A stretch of DNA of 64,000 nucleotides from Promethearchaeota archaeon (GCA_048939765.1 JBHLPF010000020.1:1-64000); one strand, 5' to 3'; positions 4,064 through 53,154 are shown, numbered from the stretch's first letter. Numbers and translations: made by a program. The notes: generated by a model from the sequence alone, not told the origin.

Positions 4064-5110
4064 CTATCTGTCGAAGTGGGCCAGAATAGCCTGATAGACC
4101 TCGAGAGCCTCTTGCTCCGATTTGACTCCCTTGATGATTGCGTTTGCATGCGGCATGAGAGTCACCTCTACATCAGATTCTGTACGGACCTTAAGCCATC
4201 TCTTTGCTTGCTTGACTTCATATGAGGCTCCAAGTTTTTCGGCCATTAGATCCAAATCTAACCTAATTGGCGATCCAGGGGTCAAGTTGAAGGTGCCTGA
4301 ACACAAGGTGGTCACCCTTGGTGTTTCAGATGGGACGTAAGATTGTTGGGTTGGTCCCAATGAACAGACAGGGCAGTCATCATCTCGACCGATTTCAAAG
4401 AAGTCAAAGCTCAGTGATGCAATATCGATGAACATGAGGCGATTCGCCAGACGAGGCTCTTGTCCTGATGCGAGAAGAACTGCCTCTCTCACTTGGATAG
4501 ATGCTACTATGGAAAGAAGCTCCGGTGTCACTCCCACGTATGCACAAGTGTAGTCGGGATTGTCCTGAGCGTCTCCTGAAAGGCAGTGGAGACAACCGGT
4601 CTTGTCAGGAATGAAGGTACTCAGGTTACTGTGAAACTCGATTGCCCCGGCGAATACATAGGGAATCTTCAGGGACACGCTGGCTCGATTAACAGCGAAT
4701 CTGGTCTTGAAAGAGTCAAGACCATCAATTATGATGTCAGACCCATTGAGGAGAGTTCTTGCATTGTCCTCAGCCAGAGAGGCGCTTATGGGTTCGAACT
4801 CGACATCCGGGTTAAGTAATGCAAGATTTGCGGCAGCAGCTTCGGCCTTGGGCATGCCAATGTCCACTGTGTTGTATACTGTCTGCCTTTGAATGTTTGA
4901 TAACTCAACGATATCTCGATCGATAATTCGTATTTTGCCAAATCCAATGGCTGTCAATAGGCGGAGAGCCGGGCTTCCAAGACCACCAGCACCTACCACA
5001 GAAACAGTCGATGCAACTATTGATTCCATATCACTCTCTGAGAAATCGTGGAGAGCAAGCATCCGTGAATACCGTTCTTTTTGTTTTGCAGTGAGTTTCA
5101 TGGCTTTCAT
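4064..5110 (-). CDS. ThiF/MoeB/E1-like activating enzyme with C-terminal extension
   Basis: GAGGLG, D-x-V-E-L-S-N-I-Q-R-Q, two CxxC motifs, TC catalytic-loop Cys. Confidence 0.88.
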   Translation of the reverse strand: MKAMKLTAKQKERYSRMLALHDFSESDMESIVASTVSVVGAGGLGSPALRLLTAIGFGKIRIIDRDIVELSNIQRQTVYNTVDIGMPKAEAAAANLALLNPDVEFEPISASLAEDNARTLLNGSDIIIDGLDSFKTRFAVNRASVSLKIPYVFAGAIEFHSNLSTFIPDKTGCLHCLSGDAQDNPDYTCAYVGVTPELLSIVASIQVREAVLLASGQEPRLANRLMFIDIASLSFDFFEIGRDDDCPVCSLGPTQQSYVPSETPRVTTLCSGTFNLTPGSPIRLDLDLMAEKLGASYEVKQAKRWLKVRTESDVEVTLMPHANAIIKGVKSEQEALEVYQAILAHFDR

Positions 5111-25536: not shown

Positions 25537-25592
25537 TTATGAATAGTAATTCATAAAAGCCGAATCAGTATATTATGAATAGTAATTCATAT
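25537..25592. promoter_or_regulatory. Two tandem TTATGAAT-N4-ATTCATAW palindromes upstream of the Lrp-mrp-Lrp operon
   Basis: 25537-25556 and 25573-25592, 36 bp apart. Confidence 0.8.
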
Positions 25593-42050: not shown

Positions 42051-42094
42051 TTATGAATACTGATTCATAAATTGTATCGAATCATGATTCATTA
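42051..42094. promoter_or_regulatory. TTATGAAT-N4-ATTCATAA palindrome plus a degenerate second copy upstream of cdhAB
   Basis: TTATGAATACTGATTCATAA 42051-42070; TATCGAATCATGATTCATTA 42075-42094. Confidence 0.8.
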
Positions 42095-45571: not shown

Positions 45572-47275
45572 CTACTTTGCCTTCACAAGTTGCTCAGGCG
45601 TTTGGATTTTTCCTGTGAGTACCAACTCTTTCAAGATGGCGCGCGCCATTTCGAGCGCAGAGGCATCGTCATAGATTCCCTTTCCCTTCTCGCGTGCTTC
45701 CGTCAGAATATCTCTTTGAACCTTGAGCTTTAGGTCACCGACGGCTAATGGTCCAATACCGAATTTGCCAGAGGCTAATTCCCTCAAGTCGTCAGATGGC
45801 TTTAGGCCTGCAATGCCAGGTGGAGGAACGGCATTTGCATCAAGTAGTATCTGGTTGGCGGACACATTCTCAAGAAGGTCTTTGGTCACGAGTTGAATGC
45901 CTGGAGCGCCAGTCACAAAGACAAGAGTTGCTTTCTCCAATGCAGCTTGTGTTTCTTCAGGTGTTGATGCCTGAATACCCTTAATCTTGAATTCATCCGT
46001 CGACAAGCGTTCTGCTACCTCTCTAGCACGGTCGGCACTTCTTGAGGTCAGGGTGGTCTTTGCACCTGCAGCTCCGCATAGCGCGGCAACGCTTTCACCT
46101 ACAGGTCCAGTGCCTGCAAGTACGAGCACTTTCGCCTTGCTAAGTGATTTCACACCCATGGCTGGAAGGGAGGCTTCTGCCTTTGCAACCAAAGCGGCTG
46201 ATGTGGTAAATGCACCATGAGGATCAACGACGACTGCTGTCGTAAATGGCTTGACCATGGCCTCTTTCACATCTTTGGCCATCTTCCGAGCAGTAGGTAC
46301 ATCACGTCCTCCTAGGAAGAAACTCGTTTGCTTTACGCCTTTCACACCCCTAGAAAAGATGGCATCCTGAACAAGCGTTGTTACGTTGTCAGCTGATACC
46401 CTTGGATAAGGTACTACGACGTCAAAACCAGCGTCATACGCAACGCAGATGTCAAACGGACTGGCGTAATCATCCGCCTCTAAGAAAAACAGGATGTTCT
46501 GCATCTTAGTCTTAGGACGTTTTACGACAGGCACCATTTTCACAGAGGAGATTCCTGTCAGTTCGGTGATGCCTTTCACCTTACCCCCAGGAGCCTCTGA
46601 AGCTACGCTCTTGAAGGATATGGGTACGACCTCTACGTTGAGGGTTTCCATAAGTTCTCTTAAGCCTTGGAAGTGTTGCGGACTACACAGATGCAGTGCC
46701 TTGACTTTCTTCTTATTGAGAGAATCGGCTTCCTTGAGAATGCCCATCGCGATCCAGCTCTCACGGATTCCAAACTCGATGTCGCGGATTTCATCCTCAA
46801 GCTGATTCTGTAGATACTGACCGTACGTAGCAAGCTGGTCGATCTGATGCACCGTTTCAGAGTCTTCATCACGTTCAGAGAGAGACTCTATGGCTTCGAA
46901 AATCTCATTTCTTCGGTCAATCTTTTGCTCGAGACTATGAGCCAAGTAGGAGCGAGCGAACTCATCCATCTCGACAGCCTTATAGGGGACTCCTAGCTTG
47001 GCGAGTGTTTCCACGAGTGGATTCATCTCTAGAAACTCCTTTGTAGAACGCATCCCCATCTCATCTGTGACAAAGTCAGGTTCCTCCTTCTCGGCCAGTG
47101 ATTTTATCATCTCACAATAGGCCATTGAGGCGCGCTGAATGAATCTTATTCCAGACTCTGATTCCTTCAACGGAGAAGAGGTCACCCACCATGGTTCATC
47201 GTAGGCTTTCTGCACCAACAGTAAGCGAAGGCTCTTCCCTTTCAGTGGAGTAAGTTCAAGTGTTTCCAACTTCAA
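45572..47275 (-). CDS. NAD(P)-dependent methylene-H4MPT/H4F dehydrogenase (MtdA/B type) with a ~250-aa N-terminal domain
   Basis: SPFD..VAYDAG, QDAIFSRG, DPHGAFTT, GTGPVG, DANAVPP. Confidence 0.85.
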   Translation of the reverse strand: MKLETLELTPLKGKSLRLLLVQKAYDEPWWVTSSPLKESESGIRFIQRASMAYCEMIKSLAEKEEPDFVTDEMGMRSTKEFLEMNPLVETLAKLGVPYKAVEMDEFARSYLAHSLEQKIDRRNEIFEAIESLSERDEDSETVHQIDQLATYGQYLQNQLEDEIRDIEFGIRESWIAMGILKEADSLNKKKVKALHLCSPQHFQGLRELMETLNVEVVPISFKSVASEAPGGKVKGITELTGISSVKMVPVVKRPKTKMQNILFFLEADDYASPFDICVAYDAGFDVVVPYPRVSADNVTTLVQDAIFSRGVKGVKQTSFFLGGRDVPTARKMAKDVKEAMVKPFTTAVVVDPHGAFTTSAALVAKAEASLPAMGVKSLSKAKVLVLAGTGPVGESVAALCGAAGAKTTLTSRSADRAREVAERLSTDEFKIKGIQASTPEETQAALEKATLVFVTGAPGIQLVTKDLLENVSANQILLDANAVPPPGIAGLKPSDDLRELASGKFGIGPLAVGDLKLKVQRDILTEAREKGKGIYDDASALEMARAILKELVLTGKIQTPEQLVKAK

Positions 47276-47351
47276 TATCTCCTTATATTTCGCTGAGAGA
47301 TTAGAAGCAGGGAACCAACTAAAAGACTATGAATACTCATTTTTCTGGAAA

Positions 47352-47375
47352 CAATGACAACAATATTTGTCATTG
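47352..47375. promoter_or_regulatory. CAATGACAA-N6-TTGTCATTG palindrome upstream of the mtd fusion
   Basis: Perfect 9-bp arms; related copy at 52119-52138. Confidence 0.7.
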
Positions 47376-47400
47376 CGACTAGTCACATATCACACAAAGA

Positions 47401-48735
47401 TCATTTCTGAGAGTGACGGGTCTTCGTCTGTGAGTGTGTAGCACATGACACACAAGGATCAAAACAGCGTATAATCATCTTGGCATAATTGATGATTCTA
47501 TCATCTGACCATCCCAATTTGCTGCAGTTTCTAGTGGCTTTGGTCAACAAATGGACCATGGCAGCAGCATTCAGTTCTGTCGGAGTACAAATGTCAATAT
47601 CGTTCACAAGCCCACCTGCACTGACTTCAAGCCGATAAAGCAGAGTTCCTCTGGAATTCTCAACGCACCCCCCACCTATGCCATCAATTGGGTCCCAGGT
47701 AGCTACTGTGCCCTCATCTGGTTTCCATATATTATCAAGAAGATGGAGTGCCCTGAGAGTACAGAACTCCATTTCATCTAGTCTAAGCAAACCAGCATTG
47801 AACATGTTCGGACCATCTCTGGCGATGCCTTCTTTCTGACCTGACAGATTCTGAATCGCAGCTAATCTTGCATGTGGACCAGTCAACAAGGGGCTGCTGG
47901 GTTCTTCCTTAAAGCTATAGATGATGCGAGTTGGTGCCTCTGATTTCCCTTGAATTTTCAAGTGAGTAGGATAGACAGAAGAGGAGAAAGCGCAAACGAG
48001 GGAATCAGATTTGATAATTGAAACTTCATCTGTGCCTGAAAATCGATGCCCCCTTGTATCGAAGCAACTTACAAACAATGGTGATTCGAGATAAAACGAC
48101 AGAATATCGTCCTGTATTTCGTTGAGGATTGATTTGTAGAAATCCTTTGCCCATTTGATTCCAGCTAATCCAAGCTGCAAAGAGCTTCGCAGCTCCTTTT
48201 GCTCTTCATCTGTTATGTTGCGAAGAAAGCCGCCTAGTGTTATTGCAGGCGCCAGGTTGGCATCGCCGGCTATTATATCGACCATCTCTTGACTACTTCG
48301 GTAGAGATTCATTCCCTGAGAGAGAAGACGCTGCTGAATCTTTCCTTTTCCCAGTGTATCCTGTCTGGAGAGTGTTTCTGTTAAGCTAAGTAGATCGGGG
48401 GATGTACAGAAGAATACACTATATGCGTGTGAACGGATAATTTCACCCAAGATGGCAAGCTCTCGAAGTGTTTCAGCTAGCGGTGGCACAGAAATACTAC
48501 TCGCCATTTCTATGGCCTTAACAGCGGCGATTCTATGTGAAACAGGACATGTTCCACAGATTCGTGCAACTAGCCTGGGCAAGTCTGCAATTCGCTGACC
48601 ACGGAGAATTTGAATGAAATCCCTGAATGTTTTCATTCGATACGTCAGATTAAGTTCGCCTCGAGCAGGGTGCCGAATCAACAGCTCACTTGGGCCGCCA
48701 ACCTTGGTGAGGGGCTTTGACAACGGTATCTTCAT
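47401..48735 (-). CDS. Divergent group 3 [NiFe]-hydrogenase large subunit (MvhA-like)
   Basis: L1 RICGTC, L2 DPCVSCATH plus a short extension; atypical TKVGG and ENSRG. Confidence 0.88.
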   Translation of the reverse strand: MKIPLSKPLTKVGGPSELLIRHPARGELNLTYRMKTFRDFIQILRGQRIADLPRLVARICGTCPVSHRIAAVKAIEMASSISVPPLAETLRELAILGEIIRSHAYSVFFCTSPDLLSLTETLSRQDTLGKGKIQQRLLSQGMNLYRSSQEMVDIIAGDANLAPAITLGGFLRNITDEEQKELRSSLQLGLAGIKWAKDFYKSILNEIQDDILSFYLESPLFVSCFDTRGHRFSGTDEVSIIKSDSLVCAFSSSVYPTHLKIQGKSEAPTRIIYSFKEEPSSPLLTGPHARLAAIQNLSGQKEGIARDGPNMFNAGLLRLDEMEFCTLRALHLLDNIWKPDEGTVATWDPIDGIGGGCVENSRGTLLYRLEVSAGGLVNDIDICTPTELNAAAMVHLLTKATRNCSKLGWSDDRIINYAKMIIRCFDPCVSCATHSQTKTRHSQK

Positions 48736-49466
48736 TAGCTCTTTCCCAACTCCGGTTTTTGATAGCGAAGGGCAAGAGCCGCTAGTTTGCGGATCTGAGG
48801 ACTGATTCTCAAGACTGAGAAGAAGTTCGCTATGGCTGCGGGCATACTTCGCTTCAATGTGCCAAAGCAGCCATCACATGGTGTTCCTGCCATCAAACAC
48901 CTCGCTTCACAACCGGCCCTTGTGATTGGACCCAAGCAGAGGACACCTTCCCGAATGAAACAGCTCTTTGGAGGCCTTGGTGGATTGATGCAGTTGATTT
49001 CAGTGGAGTAGTCTTGGTCCATTGTGTAGGGACACTCAGCGCAGACATTCTTCTCAGGAAGTATGAAATCGGTCCCTTGAATCGCAGAGAGCAATAGATT
49101 TCCCATTAGATACTGAGGCGGAGGACAACCCGGGAGCAGGGCGTGCAAATCAACATATTTGCCCACTGGGTACACTTGCATGTTTTCCGATTGACTCATA
49201 ATACCACCAAGGACTGCACAAGTTCCTAGAGCAACTATCTTCGCACCATCAGTGTAGAGCTGACGAAGGAGATTCGCTTCGGATTCATTTGTAACGCACC
49301 CTTCTACAAATGCTATCTCTGCTCGTTTAACAGAATTCTGGTCGGAGATGATAGGGAAGTAGCAAATATCCGCCGATTTTATGATATCAGGAAAGACAGG
49401 ATTTGCAAGTAGCGAAAACAAACACCCGCCACAAGAGTTGAGTTGGACGAAAGCAAGTCGAGTCAT
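48735..49466 (-). CDS. [NiFe]-hydrogenase small subunit (MvhG-like)
   Basis: SCGGC, GTCA, PGCPP, VCAEC, CLGPITRAGC..C...CDGC. Confidence 0.9.
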   Translation of the reverse strand: MTRLAFVQLNSCGGCLFSLLANPVFPDIIKSADICYFPIISDQNSVKRAEIAFVEGCVTNESEANLLRQLYTDGAKIVALGTCAVLGGIMSQSENMQVYPVGKYVDLHALLPGCPPPQYLMGNLLLSAIQGTDFILPEKNVCAECPYTMDQDYSTEINCINPPRPPKSCFIREGVLCLGPITRAGCEARCLMAGTPCDGCFGTLKRSMPAAIANFFSVLRISPQIRKLAALALRYQKPELGKS

Positions 49467-51994
49467 GTTTCAGTCGCCCCTCTCAAATCTTCTGCGAATT
49501 GATTGATATGATCTGCCACTATATGCCCTTCCAATGCTGATACTTTCAACACACGCACTCTGTTTTGTAACTCAGGCCCCAGAAACTCAATGAGCGCTTC
49601 AATCCGCTTGGTAGCTACTTGGATCCCATCGAGATGCCTACAAGCAGTTTCATGACACCCAATTAAGGTGATACCATCAAACCCAGCCTGTAGCGACGTT
49701 ATTAGAAGATCGGCATCAATAGAGACGGTACATGGCACACTGAGGAGGTAAGATCCGGCGTCATATTCGTACCGACGAGCGCCTGCATTGTCTACAGCAG
49801 GATAACCACAAGATTCACAACACAAGACTAGGATTTTGGGAGATTTTTTCCCTTTTGATAGAGCTGAGATTGCGGCCCGCATTTCATCCTGAACACTCGA
49901 TGCAGTAATAGCACCCGTGTGGCATACGACCGCACACACTCCGCAGTTTCGGCATCCAAAGGAATCTATACGAATCGTATTCTCAACAAGTGCTATGGCA
50001 TTATGAGGGCACGCCTCGACACACAGACCGCACACTCCACATTTATCCTGGTCGACAATTACCGTCAACTCGCCAGTTTCAAAACTATCGCGACCGAGGA
50101 AGAGGAGCGCCTCCAAGGCTGCTAGTTGTGCTTCACTCTCGAGCTGGGGATATGGCTTAGGACCTGTTACAGCACCACAAGCCCACACGCCTGTTGGAAG
50201 ACTCCGGGCGTCCACAAATCCTCCAGATTTGAGATTGAAACCAATTTCAGCTTGGAGCTTCGTCATGCGCTCATCTGGAGTCATTCCCATGTTGAGTACT
50301 ATTAGGTCCCCACTGAAGTCACCAACATCAGTCTTGATAACATGATGACGCTTCCTCATGTACGATTGCAGGACATTGCAGACATGTACACGCTCGTCCT
50401 CAGGAATTATTCCAGTGTGCGCGTGTGGTAAGCGTGAACGCTCATATAGAACCTTGACTGAAATCTCGTCATCCATATCATCTATTAGACCCATGTATTT
50501 GTGTGCAACATTGCAGCAATAACCGGAACAGACAGTTTCAGAACCTACACACTGTAGGATGATTAATGATTTCACAGGCTTCCCATCGGAAACGCGAAGG
50601 ATTCGTCCTTGAGTGGGGCCATCAGGAGCAAGCATGCGTTCAAATTCGTAGGATGATACAACATCATTGTAGGGATCATAGGACAAGGGATGAGAAGAAG
50701 TCAAATCTTCAGCATTAGGAAGAACTGCACCAGTGGCTAGGATAGTCCCTCCAACTGTGAACTTGACAATCTTAGATTCTTGATCCAGATCTATTGCATG
50801 TGATGGGCATGCCTCCAAGCAGTCACGACATGACTTGCAGAACTCGATATCGTCTACCTCAATGACGGGCTTATGAGGATAGGCAAATGGACAAGGCAGG
50901 TGAATTATTCGATGTTGTCCGATGCCAAGCTCAAACTTATTGGGCCTGGTTTCCGGGCAGGCCATGGTGCATTCTCCACACATTGTGCAGCGAGTTAAAT
51001 CGACATAGCGTGGAGATTGGATGGCTGTGACTTCATAGTTACCCGCCTCTCCTGTTATGCTTGCGAGTTCGCTTTCCGTGAAAATGCGCACATTTCCAGC
51101 AAGCATGACCGATGAAACTAGCTCACTAATCATACAAGGGCTGCAGTCGACTGACCCATGTATTCGTTCCCAGTGTCTAGCAGTTCCACCCAGACAGGGA
51201 GCACTCTCGATTAGTATCACCTCTAACGGAGACTTGGAAAGCACGTTAGCTGCAATCAATCCTGCAATTCCCCCACCGATGATGGCCACGCTCTTGCGAA
51301 TAGGTACCACCCTCCTTGTAGCATGGACATAGTGATGTAGCTTCGCCACACTGGCCGCAATCAATAACAGTGCTTTTTCGGTAGCCGACTCAGGATTGCG
51401 ACGATGGACCCATGAACAATGCTCTCTGATATTGGCGAACTCAACAGGCATCTCAAGTTGTTCGCATATCTTGCTGAACAAGTCATGGTGTAATCTTGGA
51501 GAACAGGCTGCGACTACCAGACCATTCAGAAAGTGCTTGCCGCACCACGACTTAATCTTCTCCACATTATCTAGCATGCACAGGAAGGGGAAAATCCTCT
51601 TGGCCATGACAGTTGGTAGCTCTGAAACCTTTTCTATGAGTGCTGTTGTGTCTATCGCACGGTCAATCTCAGACCCGCATGAACATAGGATAACTCCAAT
51701 TCTGTGAACCCTATCAATGGTTTCAGTGATGTGTGCCTCAGTTGGTCTACCAGTCATTAATTGATCTTTTGTTGACATGAGACGGACTGCATTCTGACCT
51801 GCTGCTGTAAGCCGATAGAGGCCGTGATGCTTCTCTACGAATCCATCTAGCTTCTTGAGATGATAGTTTAGTAGGCCAGTTTCATCTAGTCCTAATCTAC
51901 TCAACAGGGTCTTGTAGGGAACCAACCGATCAGAATCAAGAAGCTTCAGTATCTTTTCTCGCAAAGGATGTGCGAGGGCAGCGTATATGTTCAT
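49463..51994 (-). CDS. Winged-HTH-HdrA-MvhD fusion protein
   Basis: ALAHPLREKILKLL...LLNYHLKKL...YRLT (ArsR-like wHTH); CSCG, ACSP, GGGIAG, DCSPC, ferredoxins (HdrA); CCESC, VPC, GCHETACRH (MvhD); probable start ATG 51994. Confidence 0.88.
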   Translation of the reverse strand: MNIYAALAHPLREKILKLLDSDRLVPYKTLLSRLGLDETGLLNYHLKKLDGFVEKHHGLYRLTAAGQNAVRLMSTKDQLMTGRPTEAHITETIDRVHRIGVILCSCGSEIDRAIDTTALIEKVSELPTVMAKRIFPFLCMLDNVEKIKSWCGKHFLNGLVVAACSPRLHHDLFSKICEQLEMPVEFANIREHCSWVHRRNPESATEKALLLIAASVAKLHHYVHATRRVVPIRKSVAIIGGGIAGLIAANVLSKSPLEVILIESAPCLGGTARHWERIHGSVDCSPCMISELVSSVMLAGNVRIFTESELASITGEAGNYEVTAIQSPRYVDLTRCTMCGECTMACPETRPNKFELGIGQHRIIHLPCPFAYPHKPVIEVDDIEFCKSCRDCLEACPSHAIDLDQESKIVKFTVGGTILATGAVLPNAEDLTSSHPLSYDPYNDVVSSYEFERMLAPDGPTQGRILRVSDGKPVKSLIILQCVGSETVCSGYCCNVAHKYMGLIDDMDDEISVKVLYERSRLPHAHTGIIPEDERVHVCNVLQSYMRKRHHVIKTDVGDFSGDLIVLNMGMTPDERMTKLQAEIGFNLKSGGFVDARSLPTGVWACGAVTGPKPYPQLESEAQLAALEALLFLGRDSFETGELTVIVDQDKCGVCGLCVEACPHNAIALVENTIRIDSFGCRNCGVCAVVCHTGAITASSVQDEMRAAISALSKGKKSPKILVLCCESCGYPAVDNAGARRYEYDAGSYLLSVPCTVSIDADLLITSLQAGFDGITLIGCHETACRHLDGIQVATKRIEALIEFLGPELQNRVRVLKVSALEGHIVADHINQFAEDLRGATET

Positions 51995-52118
51995 AGTTGT
52001 ATCGCCCTTTAACCTGACTAGTTCTGGTGGAGCCCGCAGGAGCCAAGAGCTTCCCGTGCTAGACAGGACACCGAAACTTGCAGTTTCGTTGTCAGGTCCA
52101 CATTCTTTGCGAGCAATC

Positions 52119-52138
52119 ATGACAATAAATGTTGTCTT
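52119..52138. promoter_or_regulatory. ATGACAA-N6-TTGTCTT palindrome upstream of the wHTH-hdrA gene
   Basis: Same arms and spacing as 47352-47375. Confidence 0.65.
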
Positions 52139-52476
52139 GGCACAGGATGCTTCTTATCAAGACATGTCATAGGTGAACCGAAGAAGCCCAGCGTATTGAC
52201 GCAATTATTCCAAATCATGGTCTGAAATCTTGCTCCGAGGAGAGAGATTTTCTCTTATCTTTTGATTATCTATAAAAACCGCAAAGTGAAGAGGTTTCCA
52301 AATGACCTCAAGAAACTGGTTCAAATGATTGAAAGGGCTCGGAATTAAGTTCAGTAGCTGATTTGGATACAATGAAAAGGGCATAGAGCGACTCAAAGAA
52401 TCAAGAAGTGTGGCTCTAATGGTGAGCTATATTAATCAACAAATGACTTTCATCCCAGGAGGACCTGGTCGATACT

Positions 52477-53154
52477 ATGAAGCTCGACAAGTCCGTGATT
52501 GGTCTAATTTCCTTATTTTTCGGACTTCTGGCATATTATCTACTTGCAATTGTAGCCATCTTCAATTACTCCGAACGCTTCGATATCTACAATGATTTAT
52601 GGACCCATCTCCGCTGGTTTGAGTATAATCTTGAGGGTGCATTGTTCTTTAGAATTGGCAATGTGCTCTATGCACTCACATTGGCAATCTTCTTCCTAAG
52701 TGCTAGTGGATGGCAAAGTGCAGTTGCGGAAAGGAAATCTTCAATCTATCTCATTCAGACGATTGGCATCTCCATTGCTATTTCGATGATAATTCGTGAA
52801 GTTCTAGCTGATCAAGCCAATATATTTGCCATTGCATCAGGAGCAGGTCTATTGCTCACTGTGATCATTCTAGTTGGAATTGCATTCTCATCATGGAGTT
52901 ATCCGGAATTCTGGAGGGCGTCGATACTATTCTTCATCATTAGCATAATATTGAGTTCATACTTGCTATATATGGGAATCATCGATGCACCTATTCAAGA
53001 ATTCAGAATTATTGATTTCTTGGTAACTGTTTTCAATCAAGCATCAATATTTGCAATTGCGCTAAACATGGCCAAAATCCAATCCCATAACTCCGCAAAT
53101 ACAGTACATATCAAAATAGAAGGGCGTTCAGCAATGCAGGTATGCTCTTGTTAA
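52477..53154 (+). CDS. Multi-TM membrane protein
   Basis: About 6 hydrophobic segments. Confidence 0.65.
   Translation: MKLDKSVIGLISLFFGLLAYYLLAIVAIFNYSERFDIYNDLWTHLRWFEYNLEGALFFRIGNVLYALTLAIFFLSASGWQSAVAERKSSIYLIQTIGISIAISMIIREVLADQANIFAIASGAGLLLTVIILVGIAFSSWSYPEFWRASILFFIISIILSSYLLYMGIIDAPIQEFRIIDFLVTVFNQASIFAIALNMAKIQSHNSANTVHIKIEGRSAMQVCSC

Follow-up and report, generated by a model that had tools for sequence, protein, structure and literature searches.

A 64,000-nucleotide (nt) stretch of DNA from a Promethearchaeota archaeon (GCA_048939765.1 JBHLPF010000020.1:1-64000; hereafter, the window) carries a cluster of four genes that lie on the minus strand in the order wHTH-hdrA, mvhG, mvhA and mtd fusion (Table 1). 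In wHTH-hdrA, a winged-helix-turn-helix (wHTH) domain shares one open reading frame (ORF) of 843 amino acids (aa) with FAD/NAD-binding, 4Fe-4S and MvhD domains; mvhG and mvhA encode hydrogenase subunits and the last gene encodes a methylene-tetrahydromethanopterin (H4MPT) dehydrogenase fusion. Two copies of a palindrome, TGACAA-N6-TTGTC, lie ahead of wHTH-hdrA and of the mtd fusion. Here we compared these sites across Asgard archaea and consider it rather likely that the palindrome is a conserved local operator dedicated to the wHTH-HdrA cluster, most likely bound by the wHTH domain that is fused to HdrA. The comparative sequence evidence suggests that the wHTH-HdrA enzyme probably controls its own operon as well as the neighbouring gene of the one-carbon (C1) pathway.

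Copy 1 reads CAATGACAA-caatat-TTGTCATTG, a perfect 9+6+9 palindrome with the core TGACAA-N6-TTGTCAT at 47354-47372, and is located 28 nt past the stop codon of the mvhA-like gene (47401) and around 95 nt ahead of the mtd-fusion start. Copy 2, ATGACAA-taaatg-TTGTCTT, matches at 6 of 7 arm positions, reads AGACAA-N6-TTGTCAT on the gene strand and lies 125 nt ahead of the conserved ATG at 51994. A first-pass annotation of the window had placed both palindromes at 47352-47375 and 52119-52138 in this gene context, and copy 2 about 125 bp from the probable wHTH-hdrA start; all of this agrees with our results, as the true start, 51994, gives 125 nt. Its statement that the window holds no other full copy was incorrect: a third exact TGACAA-N6-TTGTC occurs at 4591-4607 on the minus strand. 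This third site falls inside an ORF (4064-5110), has a GC-rich spacer, shows no sign of function and is probably a chance occurrence. Counted in the window alone, the motif is not significant (6 strand hits compared with 2.05 expected; 6 was reached in 4 of 100 shuffles).

Table 1 Features of the wHTH-hdrA locus, in positions of the window
Feature	Position	Strand	Basis or remark
Candidate operator copy 1 (mtd-proximal), perfect palindrome	47352..47375	-	Only perfect copy in genome
Candidate operator copy 2, upstream of wHTH-hdrA, one arm mismatch	52119..52138	-	Identical in G015 and G009; degenerate in G006
Conserved box TCATAGTCTTTT (TATA-like CTTTTAG), putative mtd-fusion core promoter	47321..47332	-	14/14 lineages
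TATA-like TTTTATAG, candidate wHTH-hdrA promoter, ~250-nt leader	52270..52277	-	Upstream conservation begins here; resembles tRNA boxes
N-terminal ArsR/MarR-like winged-helix domain (predicted), aa 1-86	51737..51994	-	Alignment, PDB profile match, AlphaFold2, Foldseek
wHTH(DUF7347)-HdrA-ferredoxin-MvhD fusion gene, 843 aa	49463..51994	-	Pfam PF24038, FAD/NAD, Fer4, PF02662
mvhG-like hydrogenase small subunit (Oxidored_q6)	48735..49466	-	Pfam PF01058
mvhA-like [NiFe]-hydrogenase large subunit	47401..48735	-	Pfam PF00374; synteny kept in orthologs
mtd fusion: 270-aa N-terminal part, Mpt_N (MtdB-like) and NAD(P)-binding dehydrogenase	45572..47269	-	Pfam; ortholog alignment

In the genomes scanned individually, the perfect palindrome is private to this locus. 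A genome-wide motif scan of the assembly that holds the window (G000; 3.37 Mb) found the perfect 12-nt palindrome only once. Sites with at most one mismatch number 34, only 4 of which lie outside ORFs, and 2 of these 4 are copies 1 and 2. In each of the genomes G000, G015, G382, G150 and G137, the perfect palindrome occurs once, every time at the wHTH-hdrA cluster, and a reversed control pattern is absent from all of them. Among 31 further genomes for which both coordinates were listed, 26 of the 37 perfect sites are on the contig of wHTH-hdrA and no more than 15 kb away (around 0.2 expected), and 19 of the 37 are within the cluster or at most 5 kb upstream of it. By these comparisons, the putative cognate operator is placed in control regions of the cluster that encodes its proposed binder.

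The scan and footprinting upstream of orthologs found the motif retained at orthologous loci in several Asgard families, the conservation on which the first-pass annotation had made its operator proposal depend. Among 400 genomes from the phylum, about 130 contain an ORF of ~850 aa that begins with the wHTH domain (the wHTH-HdrA-MvhD architecture). In same-genus orthologs (96, 90 and 82% identity), copy 1 is kept with invariant arms and a changing spacer (AATATT, AATTCT and AACTTT), and copy 2 is kept in two of the three. Distant orthologs with 54-70% N-terminal identity (G382, G353, G354, the JGI contigs L040-42 and genus g20, sampled with six genomes) keep the site before mtd in the form TGAC(A/G/T)A-N6-TTGTCAT, together with the wHTH-hdrA/mvhG/mvhA/mtd cluster; across 14 lineages, the core of copy 1 is invariant and its spacer is variable. 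In other families, sites precede wHTH-hdrA itself, with two in G150 and three in G181 as examples, and in family f9 a site recurs ~1.47 kb upstream of wHTH-hdrA, in the promoter of the FrhB/FdhB-like gene that precedes it. When compared with dinucleotide shuffles, sites with at most one mismatch number 11 in the 400 nt upstream of wHTH-hdrA (8 of 25 regions; 0.05 in shuffles) and 12 in the 220 nt after mvhA (11 of 22 regions; 0.01 in shuffles). The half-site 6-mer upstream of wHTH-hdrA was counted 38 times against 7.2 expected, and is present in 24 of 34 regions.

An FrhB/FdhB-like Fe-S protein gene precedes wHTH-hdrA in an AT-rich family of the phylum (L140, G220:C1 2185-3276; L141, G234:C11 2211-3344), where two palindromes lie at about -260 and -92 from the start of this gene; the operon and the regulated promoter are therefore unlike the Thor layout.

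Copy 1 stands in a fixed relation to the putative mtd promoter. The palindrome is 20-21 nt from the box TCAT(A/C)GNC(T/C)TT(T/A) in all 14 lineages and the box is 44-51 nt from the mtd start codon, whereas the distance from the mvhA stop codon to the palindrome varies between 23 and 91 nt. Because the distances to box and start are fixed and the distance to the stop is not, copy 1 is anchored to mtd rather than to the end of the hydrogenase gene. The box resembles the TTTAWA boxes that lie ~30 nt upstream of the tRNA genes of this genome, and we therefore read it as a weak TATA box. A sigma-70 promoter and terminator scan of 47150-47500, the promoter model of which is unsuited to archaea, returned nothing.

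The region of the mtd box (47318-47337; minus strand AGTATTCATAGTCTTTTAGT) also contains ATTCATAG, which is half of the palindrome TTATGAAT-N4-ATTCATAA. This ATGAAT/ATTCAT palindrome occurs in the window at 25537-25556, 25573-25592 and 42051-42070, ahead of the hdr cluster and ahead of cdhA. One possibility is that the mtd promoter joins the private operator to a half-site of a second element in wider use; another is that the half-site belongs to the local consensus of the B recognition element (BRE) and TATA box.

At wHTH-hdrA the sites are placed differently. In genus g20 they lie at -56 to -39 from the ATG, about the inferred transcription start. Conserved leaders of 190-250 nt separate the wHTH start from a well-formed BRE/TATA, which for the JGI, G365 and G379 lineages is caaaaggCTTTAATcg (L040 5760-6000, the L102 and L103 upstream regions, and window 51995-52265). 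They are near-identical among these three lineages and unrelated to the leader in the window, and could be structured RNA or a further control region. An Rfam search of 47000-52500 at E values of up to 1, which includes the window leader, gave no match.

The recognition helix of the N-terminal domain, TG.LN(Y/F)HLKKL, is nearly invariant in 27 aligned sequences. The domain matches PF24038 (DUF7347) at 50 bits (cut-off, 27.6) and PF12840 (HTH_20) at 21 bits, under the cut-off of 27; its profile matches the putative ArsR repressor PDB 1y0u with an E value of 1.4e-5. An AlphaFold2 model of the domain has a mean predicted local distance difference test (pLDDT) score of 82.6; residues 10-70 exceed 90, and residues 87-97, a low-confidence stretch that we read as a flexible linker, score less than 50. 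The modelled elements are helices at 3-7, 10-22, 27-33, 39-48 and 64-81 and strands at 53-56 and 59-62, and the best Foldseek matches are ArsR, CadC, MarR, HlyU and CzrA (template modelling scores of 0.55-0.68, with E values of only ~2e-3). The predicted fold is thus an ArsR/MarR-like winged helix.

This domain and the motif are also paired outside HdrA. Free-standing DUF7347 paralogs in G018 and G351, from two further Thor genera (179 aa, consisting of a wHTH domain and transmembrane helices), each carry a perfect palindrome ahead of their own start, at a distance of 62-63 nt, and wHTH paralogs in G082 and G085, of a different family (277 and 296 aa), are directly followed by tandem palindromes, before the next gene. 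Where it is detached from HdrA, the domain also travels with mtd: in G365 (L102, C48, 3197-3469, minus strand) it is a free gene of 90 aa, 4 nt ahead of the mtd fusion, and in G379 (L103, C113, 1219-3195) the domain and the mtd fusion form one in-frame protein of 658 aa. These arrangements, from two genomes of a sister genus, make up a domain-shuffling series that joins wHTH, HdrA and Mtd. Of 86 genomes in the family, only 10 have the mtd fusion itself, and the wHTH domain was also found in most of these. G000 encodes only one other DUF7347 protein, on contig C50 in an ABC-transporter operon, and the genome-wide site scan found no palindrome near its gene. Neighbouring genes differ between lineages, so that among helix-turn-helix domains only the fused wHTH stays with the locus. 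The assignment of the operator to the wHTH-HdrA protein, as first proposed for this window, is therefore supported indirectly by the motif beside free paralogs, the association with mtd, the predicted fold and the nearly invariant recognition helix, and is a putative one. The autoregulation that was proposed with it would not be universal: sites lie upstream of wHTH-hdrA in several families but are degenerate or missing in some genomes. The link from H2 status to C1 flux, a further part of that proposal, is hypothetical.

We propose that the palindrome would act as a double-stranded-DNA operator with the consensus TGAC(A)A-N6-TTGTCA(T), serving wHTH-HdrA-MvhD/mvhG/mvhA and, where present, the mtd fusion. 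A dimer of the N-terminal wHTH of HdrA-MvhD would bind it locally, at the cluster that encodes the protein, the half-site cores being 11 bp apart; in the solved structure of the Mvh-Hdr complex, HdrA is a dimer. Copy 1 would be an upstream element in the internal promoter of the dehydrogenase fusion. With 21 nt between it and the conserved TATA-like box, the centre of copy 1 falls ~60-65 nt ahead of the inferred transcription start. Archaeal sites upstream of a TATA box are typical of activation or of the recruitment of transcription factor B or TATA-binding protein, and the position of copy 1 would suit activation of mtd. Sites downstream of a TATA box are typical of repression; copy 2, between the TATA-like box and the start codon of wHTH-hdrA, would be expected to confer negative autoregulation. 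DNA binding may be coupled to the redox state of the flavin and Fe-S centres, or to H2 state, in the manner of PutA. The comparisons show the conservation, the genome-wide uniqueness, the spacing to the box, the co-localization with wHTH genes and the predicted fold; physical binding, dimer stoichiometry, the sign of regulation and redox/H2 coupling are inferred. A further possibility, which we hold tentatively and regard as somewhat short of an even chance, is that HdrA-MvhD, as a subunit of an Mvh-type hydrogenase/electron-bifurcation complex, is a sequence-specific transcription factor that, by way of its tethered ArsR-like wHTH, reads its own flavin/Fe-S redox or H2-turnover state and sets transcription of the operon and of the methylene-H4MPT dehydrogenase, an older Asgard module of wHTH and TGACAA-N6-TTGTCA having been captured by fusion.

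Several observations weigh against a local operator that is read by the fused domain. In the window, the single clear TATA-like box ahead of copy 2 lies ~140 nt further upstream, so that copy 2 would occupy an unusual position for an operator. The upstream copy is degenerate in G006 and missing from the upstream regions of G382, P0004 and P0005. Many of the compared genomes are close relatives and the counts therefore overstate independence; at least 6-7 separate lineages remain when close kinship is considered. In family f1, the pattern is ~4 times more common than the reversed control even in genomes without wHTH-HdrA, mostly inside ORFs. The recognition helix of the C50 paralog (SSGLLDFHLKKM) is similar, and this protein could recognize the palindrome as well; copy 1 can also fold as a stable 10-bp RNA hairpin (-12.1 kcal/mol; z = -2.96). 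Apart from these points, the genome-wide scan of G000 found no wider regulon, and outside ORFs the N6 spacing is no commoner than other spacings (4 sites compared with 1-4). The perfect sites found elsewhere in family f1 are mostly in ORFs and have no wHTH gene near them, and the small ORFs beside the intergenic ones have no helix-turn-helix Pfam match.

The palindrome could be a genuine operator of another trans-acting factor, such as the membrane-anchored C50 DUF7347 paralog, with the wHTH of HdrA used for docking or in some other role. Free-standing wHTH paralogs elsewhere do use the same motif, several orthologs have no site in their own upstream region, and a domain fused to either HdrA or the mtd protein would also suit a docking module. 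However, the five genomes scanned individually each contain a single perfect site, located at the wHTH-hdrA cluster every time, most perfect sites elsewhere (26 of 37) co-localize with wHTH-hdrA, the C50 paralog lacks a nearby site, and no helix-turn-helix other than the fused one is conserved with the locus; we consider that a different regulator is unlikely. An element that functions as RNA, in which the hairpin terminates, processes or stabilizes the hydrogenase transcript or masks the mtd leader, would explain the folding of copy 1, its location in an intergenic gap between co-directional genes, and conserved arms around a variable loop. The first-pass annotation had named a role of copy 1 as nothing more than the terminator of the hydrogenase operon as contrary to its proposal. 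Copy 1 has no T-run and no terminator-like site, it keeps its distance to the promoter-like box and not to the mvhA stop codon, and the folding of copy 2 does not exceed that of shuffles (z = 0.04). Furthermore, the 14 lineages show no compensatory double changes, and changes in one arm disrupt pairing, with T-T in G128 and G135, C-A in G353 and a broken outer pair in genus g20. The motif also occurs upstream of operon-first genes and free wHTH genes, where no upstream transcript needs ending, and no Rfam family matches; an RNA-level function is improbable.

Least probable, to a degree that we would give it very little weight, is that the arms are conserved as coding sequence (a small ORF or an N-terminal extension that begins at the ATG of ATGACAA) or coincide by chance. 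The ATG in the window does open an ORF of 33 codons, and in the JGI contigs mtd is called in frame from the ATG of the palindrome. Nevertheless, the frame relative to mtd varies between lineages, genus g20 has TTGAC in place of ATGAC, and the arm codons lack synonymous variation at 54-70% protein identity; as neither frame nor ATG is conserved, the coding reading fails and we rejected it. Chance is excluded by the shuffle counts, the genome-wide uniqueness and the co-localization with wHTH-hdrA. We thus retain the local operator of the wHTH-HdrA cluster as the favoured reading.

The proposed system is similar to PutA, and to trigger enzymes such as BirA, in that a DNA-binding domain is fused to a flavoenzyme from the operon that it controls, the regulatory role being a proposal here; the candidate operator, as for PutA, is private to the locus and lies in the control regions of the operon itself. 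PutA of Escherichia coli and Salmonella binds DNA through a ribbon-helix-helix domain and is demonstrably switched by FAD redox state and by membrane binding. By contrast, the host here is an archaeon and the domain, which would bind DNA and might be switched, is an ArsR-like wHTH carried by HdrA-MvhD, a subunit of an Mvh-type [NiFe]-hydrogenase. This domain resembles the ArsR/SmtB repressors (CadC 1u2w, CzrA 1r1v, SmtB 1smt and the Archaeoglobus fulgidus protein 1y0u) in predicted fold, in the profile match to 1y0u and in the HL..L signature of the recognition helix, and shares with them a palindromic site, here a candidate operator, with half-site centres ~11 bp apart and, for the paralogs, an autoregulatory layout. 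It differs from them in its HTH_20 score, which is below the cut-off (21 versus 27 bits, the domain being filed as DUF7347), and in its fusion to an enzyme of ~750 aa rather than being free-standing; we know of no characterized ArsR member that uses TGACAA-N6-TTGTCA. The placement of sites, upstream of BRE/TATA at mtd and downstream of it or overlapping the start at wHTH-hdrA, resembles that of TrmBL1, SurR and the upstream activating site of Ptr2, a layout in which one promoter is activated and another repressed. TrmB and SurR belong to other protein families and have other motifs (TATCAC-N5-GTGATA, the TGM of TrmB, and GTTn3AAC of SurR), and the transcription starts used here are inferred.

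To our knowledge, experiments have revealed almost nothing about how Asgard archaea, which among archaea are most closely related to eukaryotes, regulate their genes; their balance between H2 and C1 metabolism has a central place in syntrophy models of eukaryogenesis. Our analysis provides a candidate regulator-operator pair with defined sites and a defined domain of 86 residues, conserved across families. If the fused enzyme does sense its own redox state, a subunit of flavin-based electron bifurcation would double as a transcription factor, for which we know of no earlier case, and an archaeal, PutA-like 'bifurcase-regulator' would be conserved across many Asgard lineages. A literature search, which was incomplete in coverage, found no publication on DUF7347, winged-helix HdrA or this motif.

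One further site in G000 deserves mention. An intergenic, near-perfect GGACAA-atcgcc-TTGTCA (contig C108, 1667-1684; locus L106) lies ~310 nt from two divergent ORFs, one of 120 aa without a family and one of 251 aa that is weakly YdjM-like. Its spacer is shared with perfect sites in G379 and G381, yet the compared flanks in G379 are not homologous, and we therefore rejected it as a conserved second target.

The analysis also has practical results for annotation, namely a corrected start for wHTH-hdrA and the putative internal promoter of the mtd fusion. The mtd-fusion ORF spans 45572-47275; alignment of orthologs sets a TTG start at 47269, with a GGAGAT Shine-Dalgarno sequence at 47277-47282, and the N-terminal 270 aa (46460-47269, minus strand) have no Pfam match even at an E value of 0.05. 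The wHTH-hdrA ORF extends over 49463-52120 and would encode 885 aa if started at 52120. In alignments with same-genus orthologs, however, conservation begins at the ATG at 51994, and orthologs are 842-848 aa in length; we therefore place the start at 51994 and regard the 885-aa version as over-extended. Public collections (P0001 and P0002) call the gene from the ATG at 52120, and this false start sits inside copy 2 of the candidate operator.

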